NCBI GenBank assembly: GCA_963701965.1 | Contig: OY969695.1 | Span: 1,280,001-1,344,000 of the forward strand | DNA: 64,000 nucleotides | Reading direction: 5' to 3' | From: an uncultured Gemmatimonadales bacterium | GTDB lineage: Bacteria; Gemmatimonadota; Gemmatimonadetes; Gemmatimonadales; Gemmatimonadaceae | In this document: piece by piece, positions 8,465 to 26,819 of the stretch | Layout of the letters: the number at the start of each line of letters is the position of its first letter | How positions within the stretch are numbered: the first letter of the stretch is position 1 | Program-made: the position numbers and the translations under genes | Notes under the pieces: model-generated | What the model saw: the letters and a program-made list of their open reading frames with translations, nothing else | Told to the model about the DNA's origin: nothing | The model's database searches: none

Positions 8465-10525
8465 ATGGCCGAACACGGGACGCTGGACCGGGCCATCGCC
8501 CACCATCAGGCCGGACGTCTCGCCGAGGCGGCGAAGCTCTATCGCCGCGTCCTGCGCACCGACCCGCGCCAGGCCAATGCGCTGTACCTCCTCGGCGTCA
8601 TCGCCCACCAGACCAACGACCACGCCGGGGCCGTCGCGCTCGTGCGGCAGGCGTTAGACCTCGCGCCGAACCAGGGCCCCTGGCACAATCTCCTGGGCCT
8701 GTCACTCCTGAGCCTGGGCCGCGAAGCGGAAGCCAATGCCAGTTTAGCGCGCGCGACCGCGCTCGATCCCGGCCCCGAGTCATACAATAGCCTAGGCAAT
8801 CTCCGCAAACAGCAGCGCCGCCTCAATGACGCGATCGCCGCCTACGCGCGCGCGATCGGCCGCGAGCCCCGATACCCCGACGCGCATTTCAACCTGGGAC
8901 TCGCGCTGCGGGAAAAGGGCGACGACGTCGCGGCCGCGGCCAGCTTTCGGAAGGCCCTCGAGATCCAGCCCGCCCACGTCGATGCGAAGGCCGCCCTGAG
9001 TCAGCTCCATCTCGAGTCCGGCAACGCGCACCACGCGCGCGGCGCGCTCGACGACGCGATCGCCGCCTACCACGCCGCGCTGGCGGTCGATCCCGCCATG
9101 GCGGTCGCGTGGTACGCCATGGGATGCGCCGAGAGCGCCGCCAAGCACTACGTCGCGGCGACGACCAGTTTCCATCGCGCGCTGGACTTGCAGCCCGCGT
9201 GGCCGGAGGCCGCGCACAACTTCGGCCAAGCGTTGTTCCATCTCGGCCAGATCGAGGAAGCGTTGGCGATGTTTCGGCGGGCCGCGGCCGGCGGGCCGAT
9301 CGAGCTGCCGCTGTCGGCGATCGCCGTGGCCATTCCCGGCAGCCCCGCGAGCGACAATCAGGCCGTGCTCGTCGCCCGGCGGGAGTGGGCGGACCGCTGC
9401 CTCCCGTCCGCTCCCGCGCGTGCGCCCGGCGCACGATCGCCGGGCGGCCGGCTACGCGTCGGATACGTGTCGGCGTTCTTTCACCGGCACAACTGGATGA
9501 AGCCCGTGTGGGGTCTCATCAATCGCCATGACCGGCAACAGATCGCGGTGCATCTCTTCTCCGATGCCGCGGCATCGGCCATCGCCCACGGCTATCGACC
9601 CCAGCCTGGCGACCGATTTACCGAGACCGGTCACCTGTCCAACGAGACAATGGCCGAAGCGATCGCCCGGGCGGAGATCGACATTCTCGTCGATCTCAAC
9701 GGGTATAGCACACCGCGGCGGCTCCCGGTGTTCGCGGTGCGCCCGGCGCCCGTGATCGCCGGTTGGTTCAACATGTTCGCCACCACCGGGATGTCCTGCT
9801 ACGACTGTCTCGTGGGCGACGCGGTCGTGATCCCGCCCGAGGAAGAGCGCTTCTATACGGAGCCGATCGCGCGCGTCCCGGGCAGCTATCTCACATTCGC
9901 CGTCGACTACCCCGTGCCGCCGGTCGCCGATCCCCCATCGTCCCGGACGGACGGCTTCGCGTTCGGATGCCTGGCGCCGCAGTACAAGATCACGCCCGAC
10001 GTCATTGCGGCGTGGTGTCGGATCCTGCACGGCGTCCCGGGCAGCACGTTGCTCCTCAAGAGCACCGCGCTCGCCGGCGCCGGCGAACGGCGATTCGTGC
10101 ATAGGCTGTTCGCGCGTCACGACATCCCGAGTGACCGGGTGCGGCTCGATGGTCCGTCCGATCACTACCGTTTTCTGGAAGCGTACGACGCCGTCGACGT
10201 GGCGTTGGACACGTTTCCGTACAACGGCGGCACGACCACGACGGAGGCCATCTGGCAGGGCGTGCCCGTGGTGACGTTCTGGGGAGATCGGTGGGTCTCG
10301 CGCACCAGCGCGTCAATTCTGCGCGCGGGCAACCTGGGCGACTTCGTCGCCGCCGATGTCGATGCCTACGTGGCGATGGCGATCGGCCTGGCGCACGCGC
10401 CGCTCACGGAGATCCGGCGCACAATGCGCGCTCGGCTGCGCGATGCACCGGTGTGCGACACGCAGAGCTTCGCGGCCCACATGGAAACGCTCTATGCGAG
10501 GCTCTGCGCATCGCGGCAGCGATGA
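8465..10525 (+). CDS. TPR-repeat SPINDLY/OGT-like glycosyltransferase (GT41)
   Basis: Multiple TPRs, then LRVGYVSAFF, IDILVDLNG, TTGM, KITP, ALDTFPYNGGTTTTEAIWQGVPVVT. Confidence 0.9.
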   Translation: MAEHGTLDRAIAHHQAGRLAEAAKLYRRVLRTDPRQANALYLLGVIAHQTNDHAGAVALVRQALDLAPNQGPWHNLLGLSLLSLGREAEANASLARATALDPGPESYNSLGNLRKQQRRLNDAIAAYARAIGREPRYPDAHFNLGLALREKGDDVAAAASFRKALEIQPAHVDAKAALSQLHLESGNAHHARGALDDAIAAYHAALAVDPAMAVAWYAMGCAESAAKHYVAATTSFHRALDLQPAWPEAAHNFGQALFHLGQIEEALAMFRRAAAGGPIELPLSAIAVAIPGSPASDNQAVLVARREWADRCLPSAPARAPGARSPGGRLRVGYVSAFFHRHNWMKPVWGLINRHDRQQIAVHLFSDAAASAIAHGYRPQPGDRFTETGHLSNETMAEAIARAEIDILVDLNGYSTPRRLPVFAVRPAPVIAGWFNMFATTGMSCYDCLVGDAVVIPPEEERFYTEPIARVPGSYLTFAVDYPVPPVADPPSSRTDGFAFGCLAPQYKITPDVIAAWCRILHGVPGSTLLLKSTALAGAGERRFVHRLFARHDIPSDRVRLDGPSDHYRFLEAYDAVDVALDTFPYNGGTTTTEAIWQGVPVVTFWGDRWVSRTSASILRAGNLGDFVAADVDAYVAMAIGLAHAPLTEIRRTMRARLRDAPVCDTQSFAAHMETLYARLCASRQR

Positions 10526-10761: not shown

Positions 10762-12303
10762 CTAATGCACGTAGTGGGCCATCAACATCGGCGGAGGGCG
10801 GTAGGCCACATGTCCCCGGGTGTCGTACGGGACATCATATGGCGCATCGCCGCGCGGCCAGTCTAATGCCTTGCCGGCGAGATCGGGCCGCGGATGCGAC
10901 AGCATGTACGCGGCGAGATCGAACGCGTCCTGATCGGTGAGCGTGCCGGGACGATCGTACGGCATCGCGCGCCGGATGAATGAGGCCGCGCGTCCTTCGC
11001 GCGCCATCGACGCGCCGACACTGAATGACCGCGGCCCCCACAGCGGCGGCGCCATCGCCGTTCCTTCACCGACGGGACCATGACAGCGGCTGCACTGCGG
11101 GCCGTACAGCGTCGCGCCCCGCGTCGTATCGCCCGTGAGCGGCGAGAGCGTCGGGAGGCCGGAGCCTCGCACCTCGGCCCCGCGCGGGATGCCCGTCGAG
11201 AGAAACGCGAGATAGGCGATCATGTCGTGCATGTCGCGGCTCGAGTCCGCGAGCGGCTGACCCGCGAGGCTGCGCGTGAGGCAGAAGTTGATGCGCTCTT
11301 CGATCGATGCCACCGCGCCCTTGCGCTCGATGAAGCGCGGATAGCGCGCGTAGGTGCCGATGAGCATCGCCCCGCCCGCCCGCCGCCCGCCGTCGATGTG
11401 GCAGCTGAGACATCGCAAGGCATTCGCGGCATTGGCGGGAAGACTGTCGTGCGTGTGCGCGATCAACGCCAGCCCGCGCCGGATAGACGCGCCGGCGCTA
11501 TCGTGCGGGATCGTCGAGTCGGACGGCACGACGGATGGTTCGATGGCGACGGCCGGTTTCGGTGCCCGCGTCTTGAAAAACATGAACGCGCCGACGGCGA
11601 GGAGCAGCACGGCGAAACCGCGTTTGAGGCGCGCTGGGGAGATCAGGGCGCAGAGTTGCGTGCCGATCAGGATGCCGATGACCGCCACTCCCGTAAAGAG
11701 GCCGACCGTCGGCCAGGACATTGGGACGTGGCCCAGGTAGCCGACGAGACCCGCCGCGGAGTTCGCGGCGATCACCAAGAGCGACGTGCCGATGGCGAGC
11801 GGCATCGGCACGTTTCCGAACAACACCAACGCCGGGACAATCAGGAATCCGCCGCCCACTCCGACGAGTCCGGTGAGGACGCCGACGCCGGCGCCGACCG
11901 GCGCCAGGCGTAACGGGTGCGGCGCCCGGGTTGCCGCCACCTCCGGGCGGGACGCGTTCCGGAACATTGAGACTGCGGCCACGCAAATGACCAGCGCCAA
12001 CAACGAGAGTTGGACCGGACCGGAGAGCCGCGTCCCCAGACGCGCGCCGACGTACGCCAGCGGGATGGCCGTGACGCCGAAAATGGCGGCCATCCGGAAA
12101 TCCATGCGGCCCGCGCGCCAGTGACCGATGGCGCCGACCAGGCTGACCGTGCCGACGACGACGAGGCTCATCGCGATCGCTTGCTTGGCCTCGAACCCCA
12201 AGACGTACACGAAGATCGGCACGGTCAGGACCGAGCCGCCACCACCCAGGAGCCCCAGCGAAAGACCGACGGCCAGCGCCAGCGCGAGTCCGAGAACCGT
12301 CAC
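10762..12303 (-). CDS. TauE/SafE (TSUP) transporter fused to a TsdA-like diheme c-type cytochrome
   Basis: N-terminal GLLGGGGSVLTVP and GLVGVGGGFLIVPAL repeats. C-terminal CLSCH, EERINFCLTRS, CSRCH, PPLWG, FIRRAMP. Confidence 0.88.
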   Translation of the reverse strand: MTVLGLALALAVGLSLGLLGGGGSVLTVPIFVYVLGFEAKQAIAMSLVVVGTVSLVGAIGHWRAGRMDFRMAAIFGVTAIPLAYVGARLGTRLSGPVQLSLLALVICVAAVSMFRNASRPEVAATRAPHPLRLAPVGAGVGVLTGLVGVGGGFLIVPALVLFGNVPMPLAIGTSLLVIAANSAAGLVGYLGHVPMSWPTVGLFTGVAVIGILIGTQLCALISPARLKRGFAVLLLAVGAFMFFKTRAPKPAVAIEPSVVPSDSTIPHDSAGASIRRGLALIAHTHDSLPANAANALRCLSCHIDGGRRAGGAMLIGTYARYPRFIERKGAVASIEERINFCLTRSLAGQPLADSSRDMHDMIAYLAFLSTGIPRGAEVRGSGLPTLSPLTGDTTRGATLYGPQCSRCHGPVGEGTAMAPPLWGPRSFSVGASMAREGRAASFIRRAMPYDRPGTLTDQDAFDLAAYMLSHPRPDLAGKALDWPRGDAPYDVPYDTRGHVAYRPPPMLMAHYVH

Positions 12304-12319: not shown

Positions 12320-12964
12320 CTACGCGGCGTAGCAGTACGTACAGCCCTTTTCTTGCGCGCGGTTCACGGCCAGCACCCCGATGGGCACCAGGTTCATTCC
12401 CGGCAACAGCGCTTCCGTCCACTCCTGCTTCGCGGCGGCCGCGGTGGTGCCGGCGGCGGGCGCGAATCGCTCGCTGATCTTGGTCAAGGCGACATTGCAC
12501 ACCGTGAAGATGACGCCACGGTTGACCAGCGTGGGAATGTCACTGCCGGGGGCCGGCACGCCGTCGGCGTGAATGAACGGGTTCCGCGTCGCGGGCGCCT
12601 TGGTGGCGGGGTCGTTGACCTTGAAGGCTTCGCCGATCTTGTACTTGCTCCACATTGCGTCGCTGAGTGCCATCGGCATCGCGAAGTGGCGGAAGCCGAC
12701 CACGGCGCTGAGGTCCTTGTCCGTGAGGCCGTAGGCTTCGTGATTCAGATTGAGAAAACCGGCGGCGAATGCCAGACCGAAACCGTCGTTCGTCGAGACG
12801 GCATCGAAGAACTGCTTGTGCTTGCCCGTGATCTTGTCGAGCCAGGCATCGCTCCAAGGTGCGCGGGCGCCGTTCGGCTCTGCCAAGGCTGCGGCGAACG
12901 GCATGGCGAGCGCGGCGGCGCCCACCGATATGCTTTCCAGAAACGCGCGGCGATCAGACTGCAT
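12320..12964 (-). CDS. Tat-exported DsrE-like protein
   Basis: DRRAFL Tat motif; GVIFTVCNVAL and VPIGVLAVNRAQEKGCTYCY resemble the DsrE/F-like fold. Confidence 0.7.
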   Translation of the reverse strand: MQSDRRAFLESISVGAAALAMPFAAALAEPNGARAPWSDAWLDKITGKHKQFFDAVSTNDGFGLAFAAGFLNLNHEAYGLTDKDLSAVVGFRHFAMPMALSDAMWSKYKIGEAFKVNDPATKAPATRNPFIHADGVPAPGSDIPTLVNRGVIFTVCNVALTKISERFAPAAGTTAAAAKQEWTEALLPGMNLVPIGVLAVNRAQEKGCTYCYAA

Positions 12965-13163: not shown

Positions 13164-13296
13164 GCTGCATAGAGGGAAGCAAAACTCGTGACGGAGGAAC
13201 GCGCAATACAAACGCTTGTCGCGCAGACACTTACGGAATTGCTGCCGCCGCCCCGTGTTGTGACCGCGCTACACTGTCGCGGGGAGTGCCGAAGCA

Positions 13297-13324
13297 TTGA
13301 CAGCCGCGCGCGCCGGGTAGGAAT
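13297..13324 (+). promoter_or_regulatory. Possible sigma70 promoter for the sdh operon
   Basis: Perfect TTGACA at 13297-13302, then TAGGAAT at 13318-13324 (spacing imperfect). Confidence 0.35.
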
Positions 13325-13334
13325 TACTTCGCAC

Positions 13335-14087
13335 ATGGCTCATGCGCCGTTGCCGATCACGATGCGCCGCGATGCTTGGTGGGTCCAGCCGGCCGTCACA
13401 GGGATCATTCTCCTCTCGTTCATTGTTTACGCGACTTGGGCCGCGTTCCAGGGCACCCACTACCGGTTCGGCCCCTATCTGTCGCCCTTCTATTCGCCGG
13501 AGTTTCCGCGACCCGGCTGGTGGCCCGGATGGCTGCCGTACTCGCCGGCGCTGTTGATTTTGCCGTTCCCCGGACTCTTTCGCGTCACGTGCTACTACTA
13601 CCGGGGCGCGTACTACAAGGCCTTGTGGGCCGATCCGCCGGCCTGCACGGTGAAGGAACCCCGGTCGACGTACTGGGGTGAGCAGCGGTTTCCGCTGATC
13701 CTGCAGAACGTGCACCGGTACTTCCTCTACATCGCGCTGGTCTTTCTCATCATTCTCGCGCACGACGTCTGGAACGCGTTGTGGTTCACGGACCCGGCCA
13801 GCGGCCGTGTGAGCTTCGGCATCGGCGTCGGCACGATCGTTCTGGCCGTCAACACCTGCCTGTTGGCGAGCTACACCTTTGGCTGCCACTCGCTGCGGCA
13901 CGTGATCGGCGGCTATTTCGATCGGTTGGCCAACCGGCCGGTCCGGCGTTCCGCGTACGCCTGCGTGAGCTGCTTCAATCGATGGCACATGCGATGGGCC
14001 TGGATGAGCCTGTTCGGCGTGGCCTTTGCCGACCTCTACGTGCGCCTGTGCTCGATGGGCATCTGGCACGACTGGCGTCTTTGGTGA
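13335..14087 (+). CDS. sdhC: Succinate dehydrogenase membrane anchor, mycobacterial Sdh1 (Rv0249c-like) type
   Basis: YLSPFYSP, FRVTCYYYRGAYY, PPAC, FPLILQNVHRYF, YTFGCHSLRH, HMRWAW; directly upstream of sdhA. Confidence 0.82.
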   Translation: MAHAPLPITMRRDAWWVQPAVTGIILLSFIVYATWAAFQGTHYRFGPYLSPFYSPEFPRPGWWPGWLPYSPALLILPFPGLFRVTCYYYRGAYYKALWADPPACTVKEPRSTYWGEQRFPLILQNVHRYFLYIALVFLIILAHDVWNALWFTDPASGRVSFGIGVGTIVLAVNTCLLASYTFGCHSLRHVIGGYFDRLANRPVRRSAYACVSCFNRWHMRWAWMSLFGVAFADLYVRLCSMGIWHDWRLW

Positions 14088-14093
14088 CCGCAC

Positions 14094-15905
14094 ATGGCTG
14101 AGTACGAGACACTGACGCACGATGTTCTGGTCATCGGCGCCGGCGGGGCCGGCTTGCGCGCGGCCATCGGCGCCGCGGCCGAGGGCGTCCGCGTGGGACT
14201 GGTGTGCAAGTCGCTGCTCGGCAAGGCCCATACCGTGATGGCCGAAGGCGGCGTCGCGGCAGCGCTGGCCAACGTCGACGATCGGGACAATTGGAAGGTG
14301 CACTTCGCCGACACGATGCGCGGCGGGCAGTACATCAACAATTGGCGGATGGCGGAGATCCACGCCAAGGAAGCGCCGGACCGGGTCCGCGAGTTGGAAG
14401 CGTGGGGCGCGTTGTTCGATCGCACGAAAGACGGGCGCATTCTCCAGCGCAACTTCGGCGGTCACCGTTATCCCCGCTTGGCCCACGTCGGCGACCGCAC
14501 GGGCCTGGAGATGATCCGAACGCTCCAGGACCACGGGATCCATCAAGGGATCGACGTGCGCATGGAGTACACGGTCCTGACGCTGCTCGCCGACGGCGAG
14601 CGCGTCTCCGGCGCATTGGCGTATGACCGGGAACGTGGGCGGTTCACCGTGTTTCGCAGCCGGGCCGTGGTGCTGGCGACGGGCGGAGTCGGGCGCGCGT
14701 TCAAGATCACGAGCAACAGTTGGGAGTACACGGGCGACGGGCAGGCGCTGGCGTACGAAGCGGGAGCCGCCCTGCAGGACATGGAGTTCGTGCAATTCCA
14801 TCCGACCGGGATGGTCTGGCCACCGAGTGTCCGCGGCATTCTCGTGACCGAGGGCGTGCGCGGCGAAGGGGGCGTGCTCAAGAACCGCGACGGGAAGCGG
14901 TTCATGTTCGACGATATCCCCGAGAACTACCGCGCGCAGACCGCGAGTGATCCGGAGGAGGGTTGGCGCTATACCCAGGGCGACAAAGCCGCCCGGCGAC
15001 CGCCCGAGCTCTTGACCCGCGACCACGTGGCGCGGTGCATCATGCGCGAGGTCCGCGACGGACGCGGCAGCCCGCATGGCGGCGTGTTCCTCGACATCGC
15101 GTGGATCAAAGAGCGGTTGCCCAACGCCGCGGAGCACATCAAGAAGAAGCTGCCCTCGATGTATCACCAGTTCAAAGCGCTCGCCGACATCGACATCACG
15201 AAGGAGCCGATGGAGGTCGGGCCGACCACGCACTACATCATGGGCGGCATTCACGTGGACGGCGACAGCCAGATGTCGACCGTGCCCGGTCTGTTCGCGG
15301 CTGGCGAGTGCGCGGCCGGCCTGCACGGCGCCAATCGCCTGGGCGGCAATTCTCTGTCGGATCTGCTCGTATTCGGCAAACGGGCCGGAGAGTATGCCGC
15401 GCGCTTCGCGCGCGAGCATGGGGACACGCGCGTGGACGCGAGACAGGTCGAGGCCGCCGAGCATAAAGCCTTGGAACCGTTCGAGCGAGCGCCGGGAGAG
15501 GGACCGTATCAGATTCAGGAAGCCTTGCAGGACGCGATGCAGAACTTTGTGGGTATCGTGCGCCGCGACGACGACATGCGCCGCGCCGTGCAGACGATCG
15601 AGGCGTTGACGGCGCGGGCGGAGCGGGTGGCCGTCAGTGGCAATCGCGAGTACAACCCCGGGTGGCACACCGCACTCGATCTCGGCAACTTGCTCGTCGT
15701 CTCGCGAGCGATCGCGCTCTCGGCGATTGAGCGCAAAGAGAGTCGTGGCGGGCATTTTCGCGACGACTATCCGGAGAAAGACCCGGCCTACGGGAAGTTC
15801 AACATCGTCGTCCGGAAGAGCGCGGACGGTCGCATGGAGCTGACGCGCGAGCCGATCGCGCCGCTGCCCGATGCGCTGGCCTCCGTCATCAAGGAGATGG
15901 GATGA
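14094..15905 (+). CDS. sdhA: Succinate dehydrogenase/fumarate reductase flavoprotein subunit
   Basis: IGAGGAG, KAHTVMAEGG (covalent FAD His), QFHPTG, TEGVRGEGG, HYIMGG, HGANRLGGNSL, ESRGGHFRDDYP. Confidence 0.96.
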   Translation: MAEYETLTHDVLVIGAGGAGLRAAIGAAAEGVRVGLVCKSLLGKAHTVMAEGGVAAALANVDDRDNWKVHFADTMRGGQYINNWRMAEIHAKEAPDRVRELEAWGALFDRTKDGRILQRNFGGHRYPRLAHVGDRTGLEMIRTLQDHGIHQGIDVRMEYTVLTLLADGERVSGALAYDRERGRFTVFRSRAVVLATGGVGRAFKITSNSWEYTGDGQALAYEAGAALQDMEFVQFHPTGMVWPPSVRGILVTEGVRGEGGVLKNRDGKRFMFDDIPENYRAQTASDPEEGWRYTQGDKAARRPPELLTRDHVARCIMREVRDGRGSPHGGVFLDIAWIKERLPNAAEHIKKKLPSMYHQFKALADIDITKEPMEVGPTTHYIMGGIHVDGDSQMSTVPGLFAAGECAAGLHGANRLGGNSLSDLLVFGKRAGEYAARFAREHGDTRVDARQVEAAEHKALEPFERAPGEGPYQIQEALQDAMQNFVGIVRRDDDMRRAVQTIEALTARAERVAVSGNREYNPGWHTALDLGNLLVVSRAIALSAIERKESRGGHFRDDYPEKDPAYGKFNIVVRKSADGRMELTREPIAPLPDALASVIKEMG

Positions 15906-16684
15906 CCGTGACCGACACGGCGACTTTTCGAGTGTGGCGTGGGGATGCGCGGGGCGGCGCGTTCCGCGACTACACGGCCACGATCACGCCCGGGCTGGTC
16001 GTGCTCGACGTGATCCACCAGATCCAGGCCGAGCAGGCCAACGATTTGGCCGTGCGTTGGAATTGCAAGGCCGGCAAATGCGGCTCGTGCTCGGCCGAGA
16101 TCAACGGGAAACCCCGGCTCATGTGCATGACGCGGCTCAGCGACTTGGCGCTGGACGCGCCGGTGACCGTCGAGCCCATGCGTGCGTTTCCGCTGGTCAA
16201 GGACCTGGTCACCGACGTATCGTGGAACTTCCGCGTCAAGCGTTCGATCGCGCCCTTCAAGCCCCGGAAGCCGGACGCGCCCGACGGCACGTGGCGCGTG
16301 CAGCAGGCCGATGTCGATCGCGTGCAGGAGTTCCGCAAGTGCATCGAATGCTTCCTCTGCCAGGATGTCTGCCACGTCCTGCGCGAGCACCAGGACATGG
16401 ACCGTTTCATCGGACCACGGCACCTGGTCTACGCGGCGGCCTTGGAGATGCACCCCCTCGACGTCGCCGACCGGGTGCCCGATCTCAAGCAGAAGAACGG
16501 CATCGGGTACTGCAACATCACGAAGTGCTGCACGAACGTCTGCCCGGAGGGTATCACGATCACGGACAACGCGATCATTCCCCTCAAGGAGCGGGTGGTC
16601 GACGCGTTCTACGATCCATTGGGGAAGCTGGTGCAGATTTTCTCGAGGAAGCGCGATGCACAAACTCAAGTCGATCACTCTTGA
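15902..16684 (+). CDS. sdhB: Succinate dehydrogenase/fumarate reductase iron-sulfur subunit
   Basis: CKAGKCGSC...LMC, CIECFLCQDVC, CNITKCCTNVCP; ATGA overlap with sdhA. Confidence 0.96.
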   Translation: MTVTDTATFRVWRGDARGGAFRDYTATITPGLVVLDVIHQIQAEQANDLAVRWNCKAGKCGSCSAEINGKPRLMCMTRLSDLALDAPVTVEPMRAFPLVKDLVTDVSWNFRVKRSIAPFKPRKPDAPDGTWRVQQADVDRVQEFRKCIECFLCQDVCHVLREHQDMDRFIGPRHLVYAAALEMHPLDVADRVPDLKQKNGIGYCNITKCCTNVCPEGITITDNAIIPLKERVVDAFYDPLGKLVQIFSRKRDAQTQVDHS

Positions 16685-17159: not shown

Positions 17160-18503
17160 ATGTCGTCGCCAGCGCCGTCGCCCTTGTTGTTCCGTTGCAT
17201 CGCGGGACCCGATCAAGGCAAGCGCCTGGCAGTGGGCCAGACGTACGTCCGGATCGGCCGCGCCGCCGACTGCAATGTCCTCTCCGACGATCCGGACGTC
17301 GCCGCCAAACACGTCGTGTTGGCCGCGGACGGGTTGCGCGTCGCCGTGGAAGTCGTCGCCGGCGCGGCCGTCTACGTGGACGGCGTCGAAGTGCGGACGA
17401 CCATCACCGTGGGACACGGGCAACAAGTGCGGGTCGGCCGCTCGCTGTGGGAAGTGGACGCATCGAGCGTCCAGGAAGCCATGCGCACCGGGTTCTTCGG
17501 CAAGGTCGGCAAAGGCGTCGCGGCGGCGGCCGGCGTCGAGCGGCTCCGCGGCTGGAGCGCCGAGCAGATGTTCTCCGATGTCTTCAAGGGTCGCACCGAC
17601 GAAGAGCAAGAGGAGTACTTCAACGTCGGCACGCGCACGACCACGCCGCCATTGGAGGCGATTGACGCCAGCGGATGGCCCAAGCCCTGGGCGTTCGTGC
17701 GGTTTCTCCTGCTGTCGGCGGCCGTGTTCGGATTGTTTGCCTGGGCCTGGTTTCGATTCGGGAACCGCTATCTGATCCCCGGGATGATCCTCGTCGGGTC
17801 GTTCGCGATTCCCTGCTCGATCCTGGTGTTCTTCTTCGAGATGAACGTCGCCCGGAACGTGTCGCTGTATCAGATCATCAAGCTGCTGCTCGTCGGTGGG
17901 ATCGTCTCGGTCGTCGTGTCGCTCCTCTTCTTCCAGTGGACGTCGCTCGACAACTGGCTCGGCGCCATGAGCGCCGGCGTCATCGAGGAGTCCGGCAAGG
18001 CGCTCACGCTGCTCCTCGTCGTGCGCAAGCGGCGCTACCCCTGGACGCTGAATGGCATGCTGTTCGGCGCGACCGTGGGAACCGGCTTCGCCGTGTTCGA
18101 GACGTCCGGCTACGCGCTCGTCAGCGGCATCGACAACGGCCCCGACGCCATGTTCCAGACGATCTATCAACGCGGGGCGTTGAGCGTCCTCGGCGGACAC
18201 GCGCTGTGGACCGCGCTCGTGGGCGCGGCGCTGTGGCGCGTGCGCGGCCAGCGTCCGTTCACGCCGAACATGCTGCGCGATCCGGCGTTCGTCCGGGTGC
18301 TGCTGCTGTGCATGGGACTGCACATGCTCTGGAATTCGCCGATCACGCTGCCCCTCGACATCAAATTCATCGCCATCGGGTTTCTGACGTGGATCGCGGT
18401 GCTGAGCTACATCCAGCACGGCCTCAAGGAGATCCGGCTCGCCCAGACCGCGGGCGGCGGAGCGGACGCCATCGTGCTGCCATTGGAAGTCCGGGCCGGA
18501 TGA
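17160..18503 (+). CDS. FHA-domain + PrsW-family intramembrane metalloprotease
   Basis: IGRAADC...VAAKH (FHA-like); IEESGK, GFAVFET, GHALWT, LHMLWN (PrsW motifs). Confidence 0.87.
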   Translation: MSSPAPSPLLFRCIAGPDQGKRLAVGQTYVRIGRAADCNVLSDDPDVAAKHVVLAADGLRVAVEVVAGAAVYVDGVEVRTTITVGHGQQVRVGRSLWEVDASSVQEAMRTGFFGKVGKGVAAAAGVERLRGWSAEQMFSDVFKGRTDEEQEEYFNVGTRTTTPPLEAIDASGWPKPWAFVRFLLLSAAVFGLFAWAWFRFGNRYLIPGMILVGSFAIPCSILVFFFEMNVARNVSLYQIIKLLLVGGIVSVVVSLLFFQWTSLDNWLGAMSAGVIEESGKALTLLLVVRKRRYPWTLNGMLFGATVGTGFAVFETSGYALVSGIDNGPDAMFQTIYQRGALSVLGGHALWTALVGAALWRVRGQRPFTPNMLRDPAFVRVLLLCMGLHMLWNSPITLPLDIKFIAIGFLTWIAVLSYIQHGLKEIRLAQTAGGGADAIVLPLEVRAG

Positions 18504-22435: not shown

Positions 22436-23698
22436 TCACCGCCGCGTCAAGAGTCCGACTATCAGCCGCTCGATGTCCCCGGCGGTGCTGGCCACACCGA
22501 ACGACGCCCGGAGGGCCCCGGTCGCCCCATCGCCCTGGAACGCGCGCTCGCCCGCGCCGGGGTTGCAGAAGCATCCACCGCGTACGGCGACGTGCCAGGG
22601 GCGGAGGGCGCACTCCACGCGGTCGAACGCGACAACGTCCCCGTCGGGGTCGAGGATATTGAATGCCACGACCCCACCCCGATCGGGGGCCGGTCCGGGG
22701 CCGTAGACGCGGACCATGGGCGCCCCGCCCGGATGCCGGGCGTCGGCGAGCGCGTCGAGCAGAAGCCCCGTGAGGCAGGCGACGCGCCGTTGCAAGCGGT
22801 CGACGCCCACCTCCCGCACGAACTCCAGTCCGTGCTCCACCGCCGCCAGGGCCAGAAAATCCGGCGTGCCGTCCTCGAAGGCCTCGGCGCCGGCCTTGAG
22901 GCGGTAATCCGGCGTGGCGACCCGCACGTACTCGACGGTGCCGCCGGCGAACCACGGGCGCTCGAGCCGTTCCAGCGCGTCGGTCCGCGCGATCAACGCC
23001 CCCACGCCCGTGGGATAGCCCAGGACCTTGTACAGCGATACGACCACAAACTCCGGCATGAGCTCCCGGAGACGGAGCGGGTTCGTCGGGACATAAGCGG
23101 CCGCATCCAGCAACACGTCGTATCCCCGCTCCCGCGCCGCGCCAATCCACGCGGTGGGGTGCCGGACCCCTGAGAAGTTGGACTGGGCCGGGAACGCGAA
23201 CAGTCCCCGACCCTGCGCCACGGGGGCGAGGTCGGCGGGCGTGGCCGCCAGACGGAGCTCCGCATCGAGCGGGAGATAGTGGACGGGCGCGCCGCCGCGT
23301 TGGGCGAACCGGCGCATGCCATTCACGGAATTGTGGTTGTCGGCCGACAACACCAACGGCGCCTCCGGACCGAACGGGTAACTCTCGCCGATGATCCGGA
23401 TGGCCGCGCTGGCGTTGGCGGTAAAGATCACCGTGTAGTCGGCGGGGTCGGCATCGAGCCACCGCAGCACACTGGCGCGCGCACCCGCAATGACGTCGGC
23501 GCTGGCCCGCGACGCCGCGTGATCGGAGTGCGGATTCCCATGGATCGTGCCCAGCAGGCGGTCGGCGTGGGCGCTCACCCGCGATGCGGGAAAGAGCGCG
23601 GCGCCCGTGTAGTCCAGATACGCGCCCTCCTCGACATCGAGGCGGGCGAACTCGCGCCGACGGAGCGCCGCGAAGTACGGGTCGTCGGGCGTCAACAT
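22436..23698 (-). CDS. Class V PLP cysteine desulfurase resembling the NifS-like domain of molybdenum cofactor sulfurase (MOCOS/ABA3/HxB); no MOSC domain
   Basis: [66 protein letters not shown]. Confidence 0.85.
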
Positions 23699-24159
23699 CC
23701 CCGTCGCCAGGAGCGCGTACGGGTCATCGTGGTGTCGGCGCTCAGCCACTCGTCTATGCCGCCGCGCAGCGAATACACGCGCGGGAGACCGGACGCGCGG
23801 AGCAAGAACCAACCTTGGGCCGCGTGCGCGCCGCCCGCCGAATACAGCACGATCGTTTCGGTGGGCCGGAACCCGGCCGTGCGCAGTTGAGACAACGTCA
23901 TGTGCTCGGCGCGCGGAATGTGGCCCACGCGGTAGTCGCTGTCCGACCGGACGTCGATGACCCGGAGATCGGTTCGCCGATCCCGGATCCACGCCGCCAA
24001 CTCCGGCGCCGTCACGTGATCCTCCTCGTGGTCCACGATGCGCGCCAAGGCGTCGAGGTCGACCGCGGTCGTCGCGGGCGGCGCCGGGCTCCGCACGACG
24101 GCGGCGAGCCCCCCGAGCGCGAGCGCGAGTCCGAGGAGCGCGCGATTGACTCGGCTCAC
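23692..24159 (-). CDS. Membrane-anchored/exported single rhodanese domain with Ser at the usual catalytic position and C-terminal RRGC
   Basis: VIDVRS...[22 protein letters not shown], ends WRRGC*; GTGA overlap with the upstream gene. Confidence 0.82.
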
Positions 24160-24680
24160 CGGCGCTCGATCCGACTGGCGACGAAGAAGGCCGCCAGGCC
24201 AAGCACGACGACCAGCGCGACGACGGTCCCGTACGGCAGATGCGTCAGGCCCGGAAGCGTTTCGGGACCTCGCGGCATCGCCTCGTAGAGCGGACGCAGC
24301 GCGGCGAATGACTCGTGAAAGGCGAATACGCCGGCACAAAGGCCCGCCATGACCGCGACCCCATCGATCCGGCCGGTGGCGGCGGCCACGCAGGACGTCC
24401 CCGGACAGAGGCCGGCCGTCGCGAATCCGATCCCGAAGATCGCGCCGCCGATCGCTTGCGCGAGGACGAACGTCTCGGGCACGAAGACCCGGGAGATGTC
24501 CAGGAGTCCCAAGCGTCCGAGCCAGAAGAGGCCCAGCATCGCCGTGACGATCGCGCTGAACATGAGGCGGAGCACCGTGAAATCCGTGGCCGTGAACTGC
24601 CCCGCGAGCTTGGGCGCGTTGGACATGCCGCCGCGCTCCAGCAGGAATCCAAATCCCATCCCGAGCAGCAGCGGCGTCAC
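24156..24680 (-). CDS. YeeE/YedE sulfur transporter family protein (half 2)
   Basis: GFGFLLERGG, GGAIFGIGFATAGLCPGTSC; GTG 24680 overlaps the upstream stop. Confidence 0.87.
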   Translation of the reverse strand: MTPLLLGMGFGFLLERGGMSNAPKLAGQFTATDFTVLRLMFSAIVTAMLGLFWLGRLGLLDISRVFVPETFVLAQAIGGAIFGIGFATAGLCPGTSCVAAATGRIDGVAVMAGLCAGVFAFHESFAALRPLYEAMPRGPETLPGLTHLPYGTVVALVVVLGLAAFFVASRIERR

Positions 24681-25183
24681 GACCAGAGCCGCCGGCAGAG
24701 GGGCAACATCGCGTATCCCGCGGCGAACGCACAGGCGATGAAGAGCCAACTCCCGACGCTCAACACGGCGCCTCCGCTCAGACCGAGGCCGCTGGTACAC
24801 CCGCGGGCCAGCTTGGCGCCCACCCCCATCGCCGCGCCGGCCGCCATCGCGGTGAGCAACCGCGTCGCCCGACCCGTGCGCGGCCCGCGCTCGAGACCCA
24901 CGCGCAGGCGGCCGGCCAACACCGCGGAGAGGAGGCCGCCGGCGGCGATTCCGATCACCTCGACCACGAGCCAGTCGTCGAGCGGGCGACCGGTATAGCC
25001 GTCATAGGAAGGGTTGGCCGACACGTGGCCCGGCGCCGCCGCGGCGACCGCCGCGGTGACGGCGCTGGAATACGCGCCCGAGGCCCCCAGGCCGCGGCCC
25101 GTGAGCGCGAAGCTCGCGATCAGCACGAGGCCGATCCCCGTACCGGCCAGGTACGCGCTGAGATAGGGCCGCGCCACGACCAC
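24677..25183 (-). CDS. YeeE/YedE sulfur transporter family protein (half 1)
   Basis: PYLSAYLAGTGIG, GRGLGASGAY, GAKLARGCTSGLGLSGGA. Start GTG 25183 or 25177. Confidence 0.87.
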   Translation of the reverse strand: MVVARPYLSAYLAGTGIGLVLIASFALTGRGLGASGAYSSAVTAAVAAAAPGHVSANPSYDGYTGRPLDDWLVVEVIGIAAGGLLSAVLAGRLRVGLERGPRTGRATRLLTAMAAGAAMGVGAKLARGCTSGLGLSGGAVLSVGSWLFIACAFAAGYAMLPLCRRLWS

Positions 25184-26080
25184 TATCGCCCCGCGGGGTT
25201 GTCGACTGGCAGATCGCGACGCCGTGACCAGTCCTCGAACGACCCGTCGTACAGGCGCACAGGATAGCCAACCAGGTTGGCGGCGAACAGCATCGCCGTG
25301 GCCTGCATCCCAATGTGACAATACCCGACGATCGTGTCGCCGGGCTGCGCGCCGGCGGCGGCGAACAATGCCCGCAGCTCGGCCGGACTCTTGACCTTCG
25401 TATGCGCGTCGAAGATCGACGAGAACGGAATGTTCCGCGCGGTGGGAATGTGGCCGTAGCGGGACTCGCCTTGCTCGACGCCATCATAGAACGAACGGTC
25501 GCGGGCGTCGACGATGACGACACCCGGCTGGTTGAGATGCGCGCGCACCCAAGTGTGATCGACCACCAGCGCCGGCACGGGGGTCGCGGTGATCGTGCCG
25601 CGGGCCACGGTCGGAACCACCGCCGTCACCGGGCGCCGCTCGCCCTGCCATGCGGCCAGGCCACCGTCGAGCAGCAATGCCCGGGCCCCGAGACCGGCGA
25701 CCCGCAGCGTGAAGATCACGCGCGTCGTCGCGGAGATGTTCTCACCCGCCGCGTACACGACAATCCGCGACCCGTCGGAGATACCCAAACCTTCCAGGCG
25801 CTCGCGCAGCACGTTGGGAGGCAGCATCTCCAACATGAGCGGCGACGAGTCGCTCATCGCGCCGTCGGGCATGTTTGTGTTGGCCGAAATCCGGCCGAGG
25901 TCAACCCACCGCGCGCCGGGGATGTGCCCCTTGGCGTAAACGTCGGCGGGACCATTGTGGAGAATGACGAGCGTGGGATCGTTCAGAATGGTCGGCGAGC
26001 CAGGCCGTGGTGACCGTGCCTTGGGCCGGCAGCGGCGCGGCGGCGATGATGCCCAGAAGGGCAAGCAGGGATGAGCGCAT
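25183..26080 (-). CDS. Exported tandem-rhodanese sulfurtransferase (SseA/YnjE-like), frameshifted near 25988
   Basis: Signal MRSSLLALLGIIAAAPLPA, then TVTTAWLADH; continues in another frame with LNDPTLVILH, GHIPGA, LLDGG, DAR, GHIPTA, YCHIGMQA, LYDGSFEDW. Confidence 0.85.
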
Positions 26081-26134
26081 GGCCACACGATACGCGCCAT
26101 CGACGCTCCGGTGGTGATGGAAGATTTCGGAGTG

Positions 26135-26151
26135 TGTGGCGGAAGTGTGAT
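26135..26151 (-). promoter_or_regulatory. Putative OmpR-family tandem direct-repeat box upstream of the sulfurtransferase operon
   Basis: + strand TGTGGCGGAAGTGTGAT (TGTG at 11-bp period); 12/17 identical to 28484-28500. Confidence 0.45.
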
Positions 26152-26819
26152 CAGCTGGCGAACCGATACCCGATCGTCCAGACCGTCACGATGTGCCGCG
26201 GCTTCGCGGGATCCTCCTCCAGCTTGCGCCGGAGCTCGGCGACATGGGAGTCGACGGTGCGGGACAGCACCTGCTCGTCGTATCCCCAGACTTCCCGCAA
26301 CAACTCGGCGCGCGACGCCACGGCGCCCCCGCGCCGCACCAACGCCAGGAGGAGCGTGTACGCTTTCGGCGAGAGCGCGCAGGGTCGGGCGTCGCGGGTC
26401 ACGGTGCGCCGCACCGTGTCGATCTCCACGGCGCCGAAGCGGACCGTGTGGTCCTCCCCGCTCCGGCGCAGCAGCGACCGCACGCGCTCGATGAGCTCGA
26501 GCACGCCGAACGGCTTGGTCACATACTGGTCCGCATCGAGACGAAACCCGCGGACTTTGTCTGCTTCCTCGGCGCGCGCCGACAGGATGATGACGGGGAT
26601 GGCCACGCGCTTGGCGCGCAACTGCTGCAACACCTCGTACCCATCCATGAGTGGCAACATGAGATCGAGAATGACGAGATCGGCCGGCCACTCGGTCGCG
26701 GCCTTGAGACCGGCCGGCCCGTCGCCCGCGATGCGCACGTCATAGCCCTCGAACCGCAGGTTCTCGGCGATCCCGTCGGCGAGATCGGCGTTGTCTTCGA
26801 CGACCAGGACGCGCGCCAT
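26151..26819 (-). CDS. OmpR/PhoB-family response regulator
   Basis: VLVVEDN, LDLMLP, DQYVTKPF, SRTVDSHVAELRRKLE, TVWTIGYRF. Confidence 0.95.
   Translation of the reverse strand: MARVLVVEDNADLADGIAENLRFEGYDVRIAGDGPAGLKAATEWPADLVILDLMLPLMDGYEVLQQLRAKRVAIPVIILSARAEEADKVRGFRLDADQYVTKPFGVLELIERVRSLLRRSGEDHTVRFGAVEIDTVRRTVTRDARPCALSPKAYTLLLALVRRGGAVASRAELLREVWGYDEQVLSRTVDSHVAELRRKLEEDPAKPRHIVTVWTIGYRFAS

Follow-up and report, generated by a model that had tools for sequence, protein, structure and literature searches.

A TauE-TsdA gene fusion in Gemmatimonadaceae that may couple thiosulfate export to thiosulfate oxidation

TauE/TSUP proteins are widespread and their cargo is mostly assumed, so that a natural fusion of one of them to a heme enzyme is a pointer to what it carries. 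Such a fusion is encoded in the window analysed here, a stretch of 64,000 nucleotides of the genome of an uncultured Gemmatimonadales bacterium (GCA_963701965.1, contig OY969695.1; genome G000, a single contig of 5.12 Mb, 94.96% complete). The question raised by this locus is whether its two halves, a TauE domain and a diheme cytochrome of the thiosulfate dehydrogenase (TsdA) type, handle the same compound, and in which direction. Automatic database labels of such proteins ("cytochrome c/uncharacterized membrane protein YfcA", "TSUP family transporter") do not recognise the architecture. The initial annotation noted that it is not known to have been characterised, and we found no description in the literature covered.

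The features of the locus are listed in Table 1. The single open reading frame read as TauE fused to TsdA is borne out by the Pfam search, which recovers TauE (PF01925, residues 6-241, E 1.9e-46), SoxA-TsdA_cyt-c (295-373, E 5.3e-13) and Cytochrome_CBB3 (392-467), and by homologous fusions. The motifs quoted for it (CLSCH, EERINFCLTRS, CSRCH, PPLWG, FIRRAMP) are all present. The annotation had excluded both an internal start and a signal peptide at the junction; the second point stands, the first needs amending: an internal Met, M241, lies in the last helix, is not conserved among homologues and is followed by no signal peptide. The in-frame GC3 stays at 0.75-0.93 across the junction, and the identical stop-free frame is found at 63-64% identity in three other genomes (G001, G003, G005); the fusion-bearing relatives are titled Gemmatimonadaceae or Gemmatimonadales. 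Because this frame recurs in these genomes and in 10 further protein clusters, the fusion is genuine, neither a chance join nor an assembly error. The existence of split sister forms would fit two genes merged by a frameshift or by the assembly, as would two singleton fusions described below (P0235 and P0413, the latter retaining a signal-like stretch), which could be merges. For the gene of the window the probability of such an artefact is virtually nil: one open frame is kept in four genomes and in 11 clusters of its family, one of them with 31 members, a second family of fusions comprises 16 clusters, and independent assemblies, homologous frames and GC3 rule the artefact out. A promoter and terminator scan returned 0 promoter-like sites and 1 terminator-like site, which is chance level.

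Table 1. Features of the fusion locus, in positions of the window
Feature	Position	Strand	Description
TauE-TsdA fusion gene	10762..12303	minus	513 aa, GTG start, stop-free; single frame kept in relatives
TauE/TSUP domain	11566..12303	minus	residues 1-246; Pfam PF01925, model pLDDT 92.4, BacA-like fold
Pro/Ala linker	11533..11565	minus	residues 247-257; no signal peptide; lowest interior pLDDT block; length varies in homologues
TsdA diheme cytochrome c domain	10762..11532	minus	residues 258-513; match to 4v2k
Heme 1 motif CLSCH	11398..11412	minus	residues 298-302; C, C and H invariant in 29/29 fusion clusters
C341	11281..11283	minus	equivalent of A. vinosum TsdA Cys123; flanked by R327, R337 and S345; 29/29
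Heme 2 motif CSRCH	11080..11094	minus	residues 404-408
A446-M447	10963..10968	minus	heme 2 distal Met and variable preceding residue
dsrE-like gene	12320..12964	minus	214 aa; twin-arginine-type N-terminus, DsrE/DsrF fold, invariant Cys156

The C-terminal half has the features of a TsdA: the diheme SoxA/TsdA fold with two CxxCH motifs, the Cys ligand with two Arg and a Ser, and the heme-2 Met, which is strictly conserved in TsdA according to PMC5146829. Residues 258-489 match A. vinosum TsdA (4v2k) with E 2.2e-46, and in the model of the full protein (pLDDT 92.4, 77 alignment rows) this half superimposes on 4v2k with Z 30.8 and rmsd 1.2 over 224 aligned residues, at 40% identity. In the alignment, R327, R337, C341, S345 and R435 correspond to Arg109, Arg119, Cys123, Ser127 and Arg224 of A. 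vinosum TsdA; in PMC4423706, Cys123 is the catalytic heme-ligating Cys, and Ser127 is described as TsdA-specific and absent from SoxA. The five residues, M447 and both CxxCH motifs are kept in 29 of the 29 clusters of fusions. To judge from the alignment, all known TsdA catalytic residues are conserved and the active site looks intact, which agrees with the candidate catalytic Cys proposed earlier. The alternative of a SoxA was rejected: the model TIGR04484 gives 37.3 bits against a cut-off of 110, SoxB has no match in G000, and the TsdA-specific Ser is present.

The residue preceding the heme-2 Met had been singled out as an Ala that influences the direction of catalysis. It is indeed Ala here, and in the 29 clusters it is His (11), Ala (8), Asn (8) or Gly (2), never Lys. 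In TsdA this position shifts the catalytic bias, but not in a simple manner (PMC5146829). As the position also varies among the clusters, the direction of catalysis cannot be deduced from residue 446, and the attempt to do so was abandoned. Heme 2 of A. vinosum TsdA undergoes a Lys/Met ligand switch; eleven fusions of the second family (P0402-P0412) have a His directly before the Met, and a His/Met switch is possible there by analogy. Other partners of TsdA domains in fusions are a di-heme cytochrome c peroxidase domain in P0273 and a sulfatase in P0323, and G001 and G003 carry a second tsdA in addition to the fusion.

The N-terminal half matches PF01925 with 159 bits against a threshold of 32.6, over positions 2-237 of the 237 of the profile and with two repeats, and is thus a TauE-family protein. 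Its model has ten helices; Gly-rich breaks at residues 20-23 and 148-152 split two pairs of them, which are predicted to form two re-entrant hairpins in addition to six full spans. No TauE structure is present among the fold-search matches, of which BacA is the best solved one with Foldseek (probability 1.00, E 0.004, TM 0.58). VIA-align superimposes residues 1-246 onto residues 6-273 of BacA 5oon (Z 13.7, rmsd 3.8, 237 aligned), and the runner-up membrane protein reaches Z 5.5. BacA/UppP (5oon, 6fmt) shares the inverted repeat and the two hairpins, but it is a lipid phosphatase, 12-21% identical, and serves as a topology template only. According to PMC5852022 and PMC5861054, BacA has six spans, two re-entrant hairpins and both termini assigned to the periplasm, an orientation which rests largely on the positive-inside rule. 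Since the TauE half aligns end to end with a protein whose termini are periplasmic, the model makes it likely that the TsdA domain lies on the periplasmic side. The earlier proposal that the last TauE helix serves as export anchor is likewise made likely by the modelled topology and by the lack of a signal peptide.

The mean number of K+R (window's family/other fusions) is 3.6/2.1, 3.1/4.1, 1.1/1.0 and 3.0/3.8 in the predicted inside loops, and 1.5/0.9, 1.1/1.9 and 0.1/0.1 in the predicted outside loops. Most of these values agree with the proposed topology, three of the four inside loops having means of 2.1-4.1 and the three outside loops 0.1-1.9. The inside loop with only about one K/R counts against it, and the stretch after the last helix (3.5/3.2) counts against an external C-terminus. 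Related proteins, examined by eye, bear on the same point: an external C-terminus is favoured by P0288, where a Tll0287-like CxxCH heme-c domain directly follows the last TauE helix, and by two of three TauE-rhodanese fusions (P0281, P0351), which insert an extra hydrophobic helix before the rhodanese; P0340, where the rhodanese follows without an extra helix, counts against it. The TauE subfamily of the window has further fusion partners, namely Tll0287-like heme c domains, YeeE half-transporters and rhodaneses (P0288, P0306, P0337, P0356, P0374, P0281, P0351).

It could be argued that the TauE half transports nothing and serves TsdA as a scaffold in the membrane or as a regulator. The TauE domain of MamO has a non-transport role, the fusion weakly resembles that domain (E 1.7e-5), and BacA illustrates that the fold of the TauE half can be that of an enzyme. 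This is very improbable, considering that anchoring would need just one helix and that all ten are kept, as are the Gly motifs of the hairpins, which are invariant in every fusion row covering them. Between G001 and G003, dN/dS is 0.015/0.174 for the TauE half and 0.025/0.196 for the TsdA half: on this comparison of sequences, purifying selection on the transporter domain is as strong as on the enzyme. G000 has four other TauE-family genes, all distant from the TauE of the fusion.

The linker from the last TauE helix to the first TsdA helix comprises 17-37 residues in the family of the window and 25-105 in the others (29 clusters). This variation in length suggests a flexible tether and argues against a tunnel. 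The coupling of transporter and enzyme would therefore likely result from proximity and fixed stoichiometry rather than from a closed channel.

Within the family Gemmatimonadaceae, the fusion is present at full length in only 4 of 301 genomes (G000, G001, G003 and G005, all of one genus), a count taken from the 150 best matches, at the top of which any full-length match is expected. No fusion is found in G002 (90% complete) or G004 (67% complete), and 243 of the 301 genomes match tsdA or tauE with an E value no higher than 1e-60. The 301-genome tallies include the unpublished genomes G012, G161, G275 and G321, and G012 is also one row among the 24 short loci used below and in two alignments; no conclusion depends on them. 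Among the best 120 proteins listed, 10 besides the query cover 91-100% of the fusion at 59-65% identity, and P0015 has the same coverage at 41%. P0233 and P0235 came from a profile-free scan of 50% representatives; when the two were aligned and the alignment was used as query, 15 more clusters were retrieved. The search for homologous architectures thus yields 29 clusters with both domains: 11 in the family of the window, 16 in a second family, and two singletons (P0235, P0413) which may be merged genes. The TauE of the second family lies near proteins of Myxococcota and Actinomycetota, tree neighbours that hint at its hosts.

In the trees of each half, the groups of fusions sit among different unfused relatives. 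A single clade of fusions is rejected by the AU test for the TsdA half (p 3e-58) and for the TauE half (p 1e-48, or p 4e-6 when only the two main families are compared). These p values are indicative, the rows (subsets of 31, 31 and 37, LG+G4 without mixture model) having been picked after fast trees were seen. One common origin is thus rejected on both halves, and these trees suggest three or more independent origins of the fusion.

In a sister genus (g57), the orthologous genes are separate neighbours. Among six genomes examined, three (G310, G262, G072) have the order dsrE-like, tauE, dioxygenase-rhodanese, tsdA; G174 has dsrE-like, tauE and tsdA without the dioxygenase, G206 has the cluster without tauE, and G131 has the dioxygenase and tsdA only. 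The TauEs of this genus group with the fused TauEs (support 100/98) and its TsdAs have signal-like leaders ending in Cys. The genes tauE, dioxygenase and tsdA are also found together in G022 and L078. Loss of the middle gene and then of the leader would give the fusion; fission is an alternative to this order of events.

Of 160 TauE-seeded loci, 72 have a near-full dioxygenase-rhodanese gene no more than 5 kb from TauE; the loci are related, so that these are not 72 independent cases. Both Cys motifs are present in 57 of the 72. The loop Cys-Gly and the rhodanese Cys that define a CstB-type enzyme are found in G000, G001, G003, G004, G005 and G310, the motifs being matched to the residue numbers of PMC12934615, not via an alignment to S. 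aureus CstB. According to this 2026 preprint, CstB converts persulfide to thiosulfate and releases no sulfite, and the sulfite efflux proposed for S. aureus TauE has no direct support.

These data bear on a reading in which the fusion brings nothing but an anchor or co-expression: TauE would export sulfite, TsdA would oxidise environmental thiosulfate, and neighbouring genes of a sulfur-stress operon would simply have merged. PMC5840216 and PMC9371685 describe TauE as a probable sulfite exporter. The intermixing of fused and split forms in one clade of both trees, the N-terminal signals borne by the split TsdAs, the linkers of such different lengths and the molybdopterin-oxidoreductase gene that follows tsdA in 7 of 25 loci all agree with this reading. 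We nevertheless hold it to be rather unlikely, since the same pair was fused separately in at least three lineages and since the partner dioxygenase has the CstB-type loop, an enzyme reported not to release sulfite. The order standalone tsdA then molybdopterin oxidoreductase is seen in L036, L226, L227, L229, L236, L238, L239 and L242; L036 adds a cytochrome c.

The initial annotation was partly upheld as a whole; it omitted the sister-genus cluster, the repeated origin of the fusion and the gene which lies just upstream of it. This dsrE-like gene ends 16 nt before the start of the fusion and is likely co-transcribed with it. It precedes the fusion in G001, G003, G005 and in loci L041 and L042, and in 9 of the 24 short loci it adjoins a tsdA that is not fused. 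The model of its product (pLDDT 87.9) matches the DsrE-like structure 2pd2 with Z 14.4 and rmsd 1.4 over 107 residues, the second fold match having Z 13.4; the top ten fold matches are all DsrE-like. Cys156 is invariant in 14 of 14 homologues, and this fold together with a conserved Cys, also shared with 1l1s, makes it a DsrE/DsrF protein. By sequence, it matches neither the Pfam DsrE family nor any other Pfam family, a search of the PDB gives nothing significant, and the nearest Atlas clusters are unnamed Gemmatimonadota proteins. Its similarity to the thiosulfate dehydrogenase model NF052225 is weak (34 bits against a cut-off of 300), and is weak in 12 of the 14 homologues as well; the model presumably represents the enzyme of Acidithiobacillus that PMC6335251 reviews. 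An archaeal DsrE reacts with tetrathionate (PMC4175335). A second twin-arginine-type DsrE-like paralogue, 41% identical and with no tsdA nearby, is encoded in G000 at about 4.739 Mb (L202:6628-7353), and in the gammaproteobacterial locus L194 a DsrE domain gene and tsdA are divergent from tauE, a separate instance of the trio.

The reading that we prefer, to which we give about an even chance, is that the fusion exports cytoplasmic thiosulfate and oxidises it to tetrathionate at the periplasmic face. Six spans and two re-entrant hairpins would put the C-terminus outside; the last helix would thereby replace TsdA's own signal or lipoprotein anchor, and heme attachment in the periplasm would become possible. 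The unlinked CstB-type dioxygenase would turn persulfide into thiosulfate, which would leave through TauE; TsdA would join two thiosulfates through C341, and heme 2 would hand the two electrons on to a cytochrome c and a heme-copper oxidase. Oxidation by TsdA would keep the outside thiosulfate low. More speculatively, the exported DsrE-fold protein may react with tetrathionate through Cys156. That the TauE subfamily carries thiosulfate in a Sox- and SQR-independent module made of the dioxygenase, TauE export, the tethered TsdA and capture of tetrathionate on the Cys of the DsrE-fold protein is a more tentative proposal, on the doubtful side; if it is true, the tethered enzyme would pull the export and feed the respiratory chain, and persulfide detoxification would yield respiratory electrons in Gemmatimonadota.

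Thiosulfate export and oxidation are favoured by the dioxygenase-rhodanese with both Cys motifs that all four fusion genomes keep and, in G000, by three Cytochrom_C_asm matches (cytochrome c assembly), by COX1 and by the lack of a SoxB match. An ORF carrying one CxxCH lies just upstream of COX1, and the oxidase is presumably of the caa3 type. Several facts count against the same reading: the dioxygenase-rhodanese of the fusion genomes is unlinked to the fusion; it does not group tightly with that of the sister genus; no tsdB-like gene adjoins the fusion; and neither a single query nor a five-sequence profile nor a motif scan detected SQR in G000. The SQR candidates were only NADH-dehydrogenase-like partial matches and were rejected; other types of SQR could be missed by this search. 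A molybdopterin oxidoreductase that adjoins a cytochrome c at about 3.148 Mb could use exported sulfite, which counts against thiosulfate as the cargo. From the Sox system, only a distant SoxY/SoxZ two-domain gene was found; it lies at 2.66-2.69 Mb (L206-L207) with a rhodanese, among genes which we take to resemble a methanopterin-linked C1 transfer cluster.

The flow could also be inward: TsdA would reduce outside tetrathionate, helped by the DsrE-fold protein in capturing it, and TauE would import the thiosulfate for assimilation or for cytoplasmic sulfurtransferases. TsdAs are bidirectional and the N254G variant of the C. jejuni enzyme leans to reduction (PMC5146829). The lack of Lys before the heme-2 Met of the fusions, which have Ala, Gly, Asn or His, the failure to find SQR in G000 and the reactivity of archaeal DsrE are in line with import. 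On the other hand, efflux rather than import is to be expected next to a dioxygenase that consumes O2 and makes thiosulfate, no dedicated electron donor gene adjoins the fusion, and a YeeE-type pair, of a family known for thiosulfate uptake, is encoded 12 kb away. We regard the inward direction as distinctly unlikely.

Compared with known systems, both halves belong to known families; what seems not to have been described before is their combination in one protein, the repeated origin of this architecture and the module of four genes. The TsdAs of A. vinosum (4v2k, 4wq7) and C. jejuni share with the fusion the diheme fold and the equivalents of the catalytic residues and of the heme-2 Met; in contrast to them, the fusion has no signal peptide of its own, sits on a ten-helix transporter domain, has Ala at the Lys/Asn position and has no adjacent acceptor gene. 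In TsdBA of Marichromatium purpuratum (5lo9, Z 30.3), TsdA is also C-terminal in a natural fusion, but its N-terminal partner is a cytochrome electron acceptor instead of a membrane transporter. The TauE/SafE proteins of persulfide operons (tauE-cstR-cstA-cstB in S. aureus) share PF01925 and, in the subfamily of the window, the proximity of CstB-type genes noted above; the fusion differs from the S. aureus type in being joined to a probably periplasmic enzyme, with the dioxygenase unlinked and SQR not found in G000 by the search described. The fusion would give TsdA a new type of membrane anchor and offers a built-in optical readout, as the attached hemes would become reduced when thiosulfate crosses the membrane. 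Through its upstream neighbour it links a family of exported DsrE-fold proteins that has no name yet with the metabolism of thiosulfate.

Other genes of the window were noted on both sides of the fusion. A cluster at 22436-26691 (minus strand), 10 kb off, encodes a tandem rhodanese, two YeeE/YedE half-transporters, a small rhodanese-like protein and a class V aminotransferase which resembles cysteine desulfurases. A succinate dehydrogenase/fumarate reductase operon of the PRK07803/PRK12386 type (13188-16684, plus strand), whose anchor subunit has no Pfam match, is transcribed divergently from the dsrE-like gene, with synteny kept in G001, G003 and G005. An FHA domain fused to a PrsW-family intramembrane protease is encoded at 17160-18503 (plus strand; 76-78% conserved in G001 and G003), and a gene with TPR and glycosyltransferase-41 domains (8465-10525, plus strand), syntenic in the genus, is convergent on the fusion.
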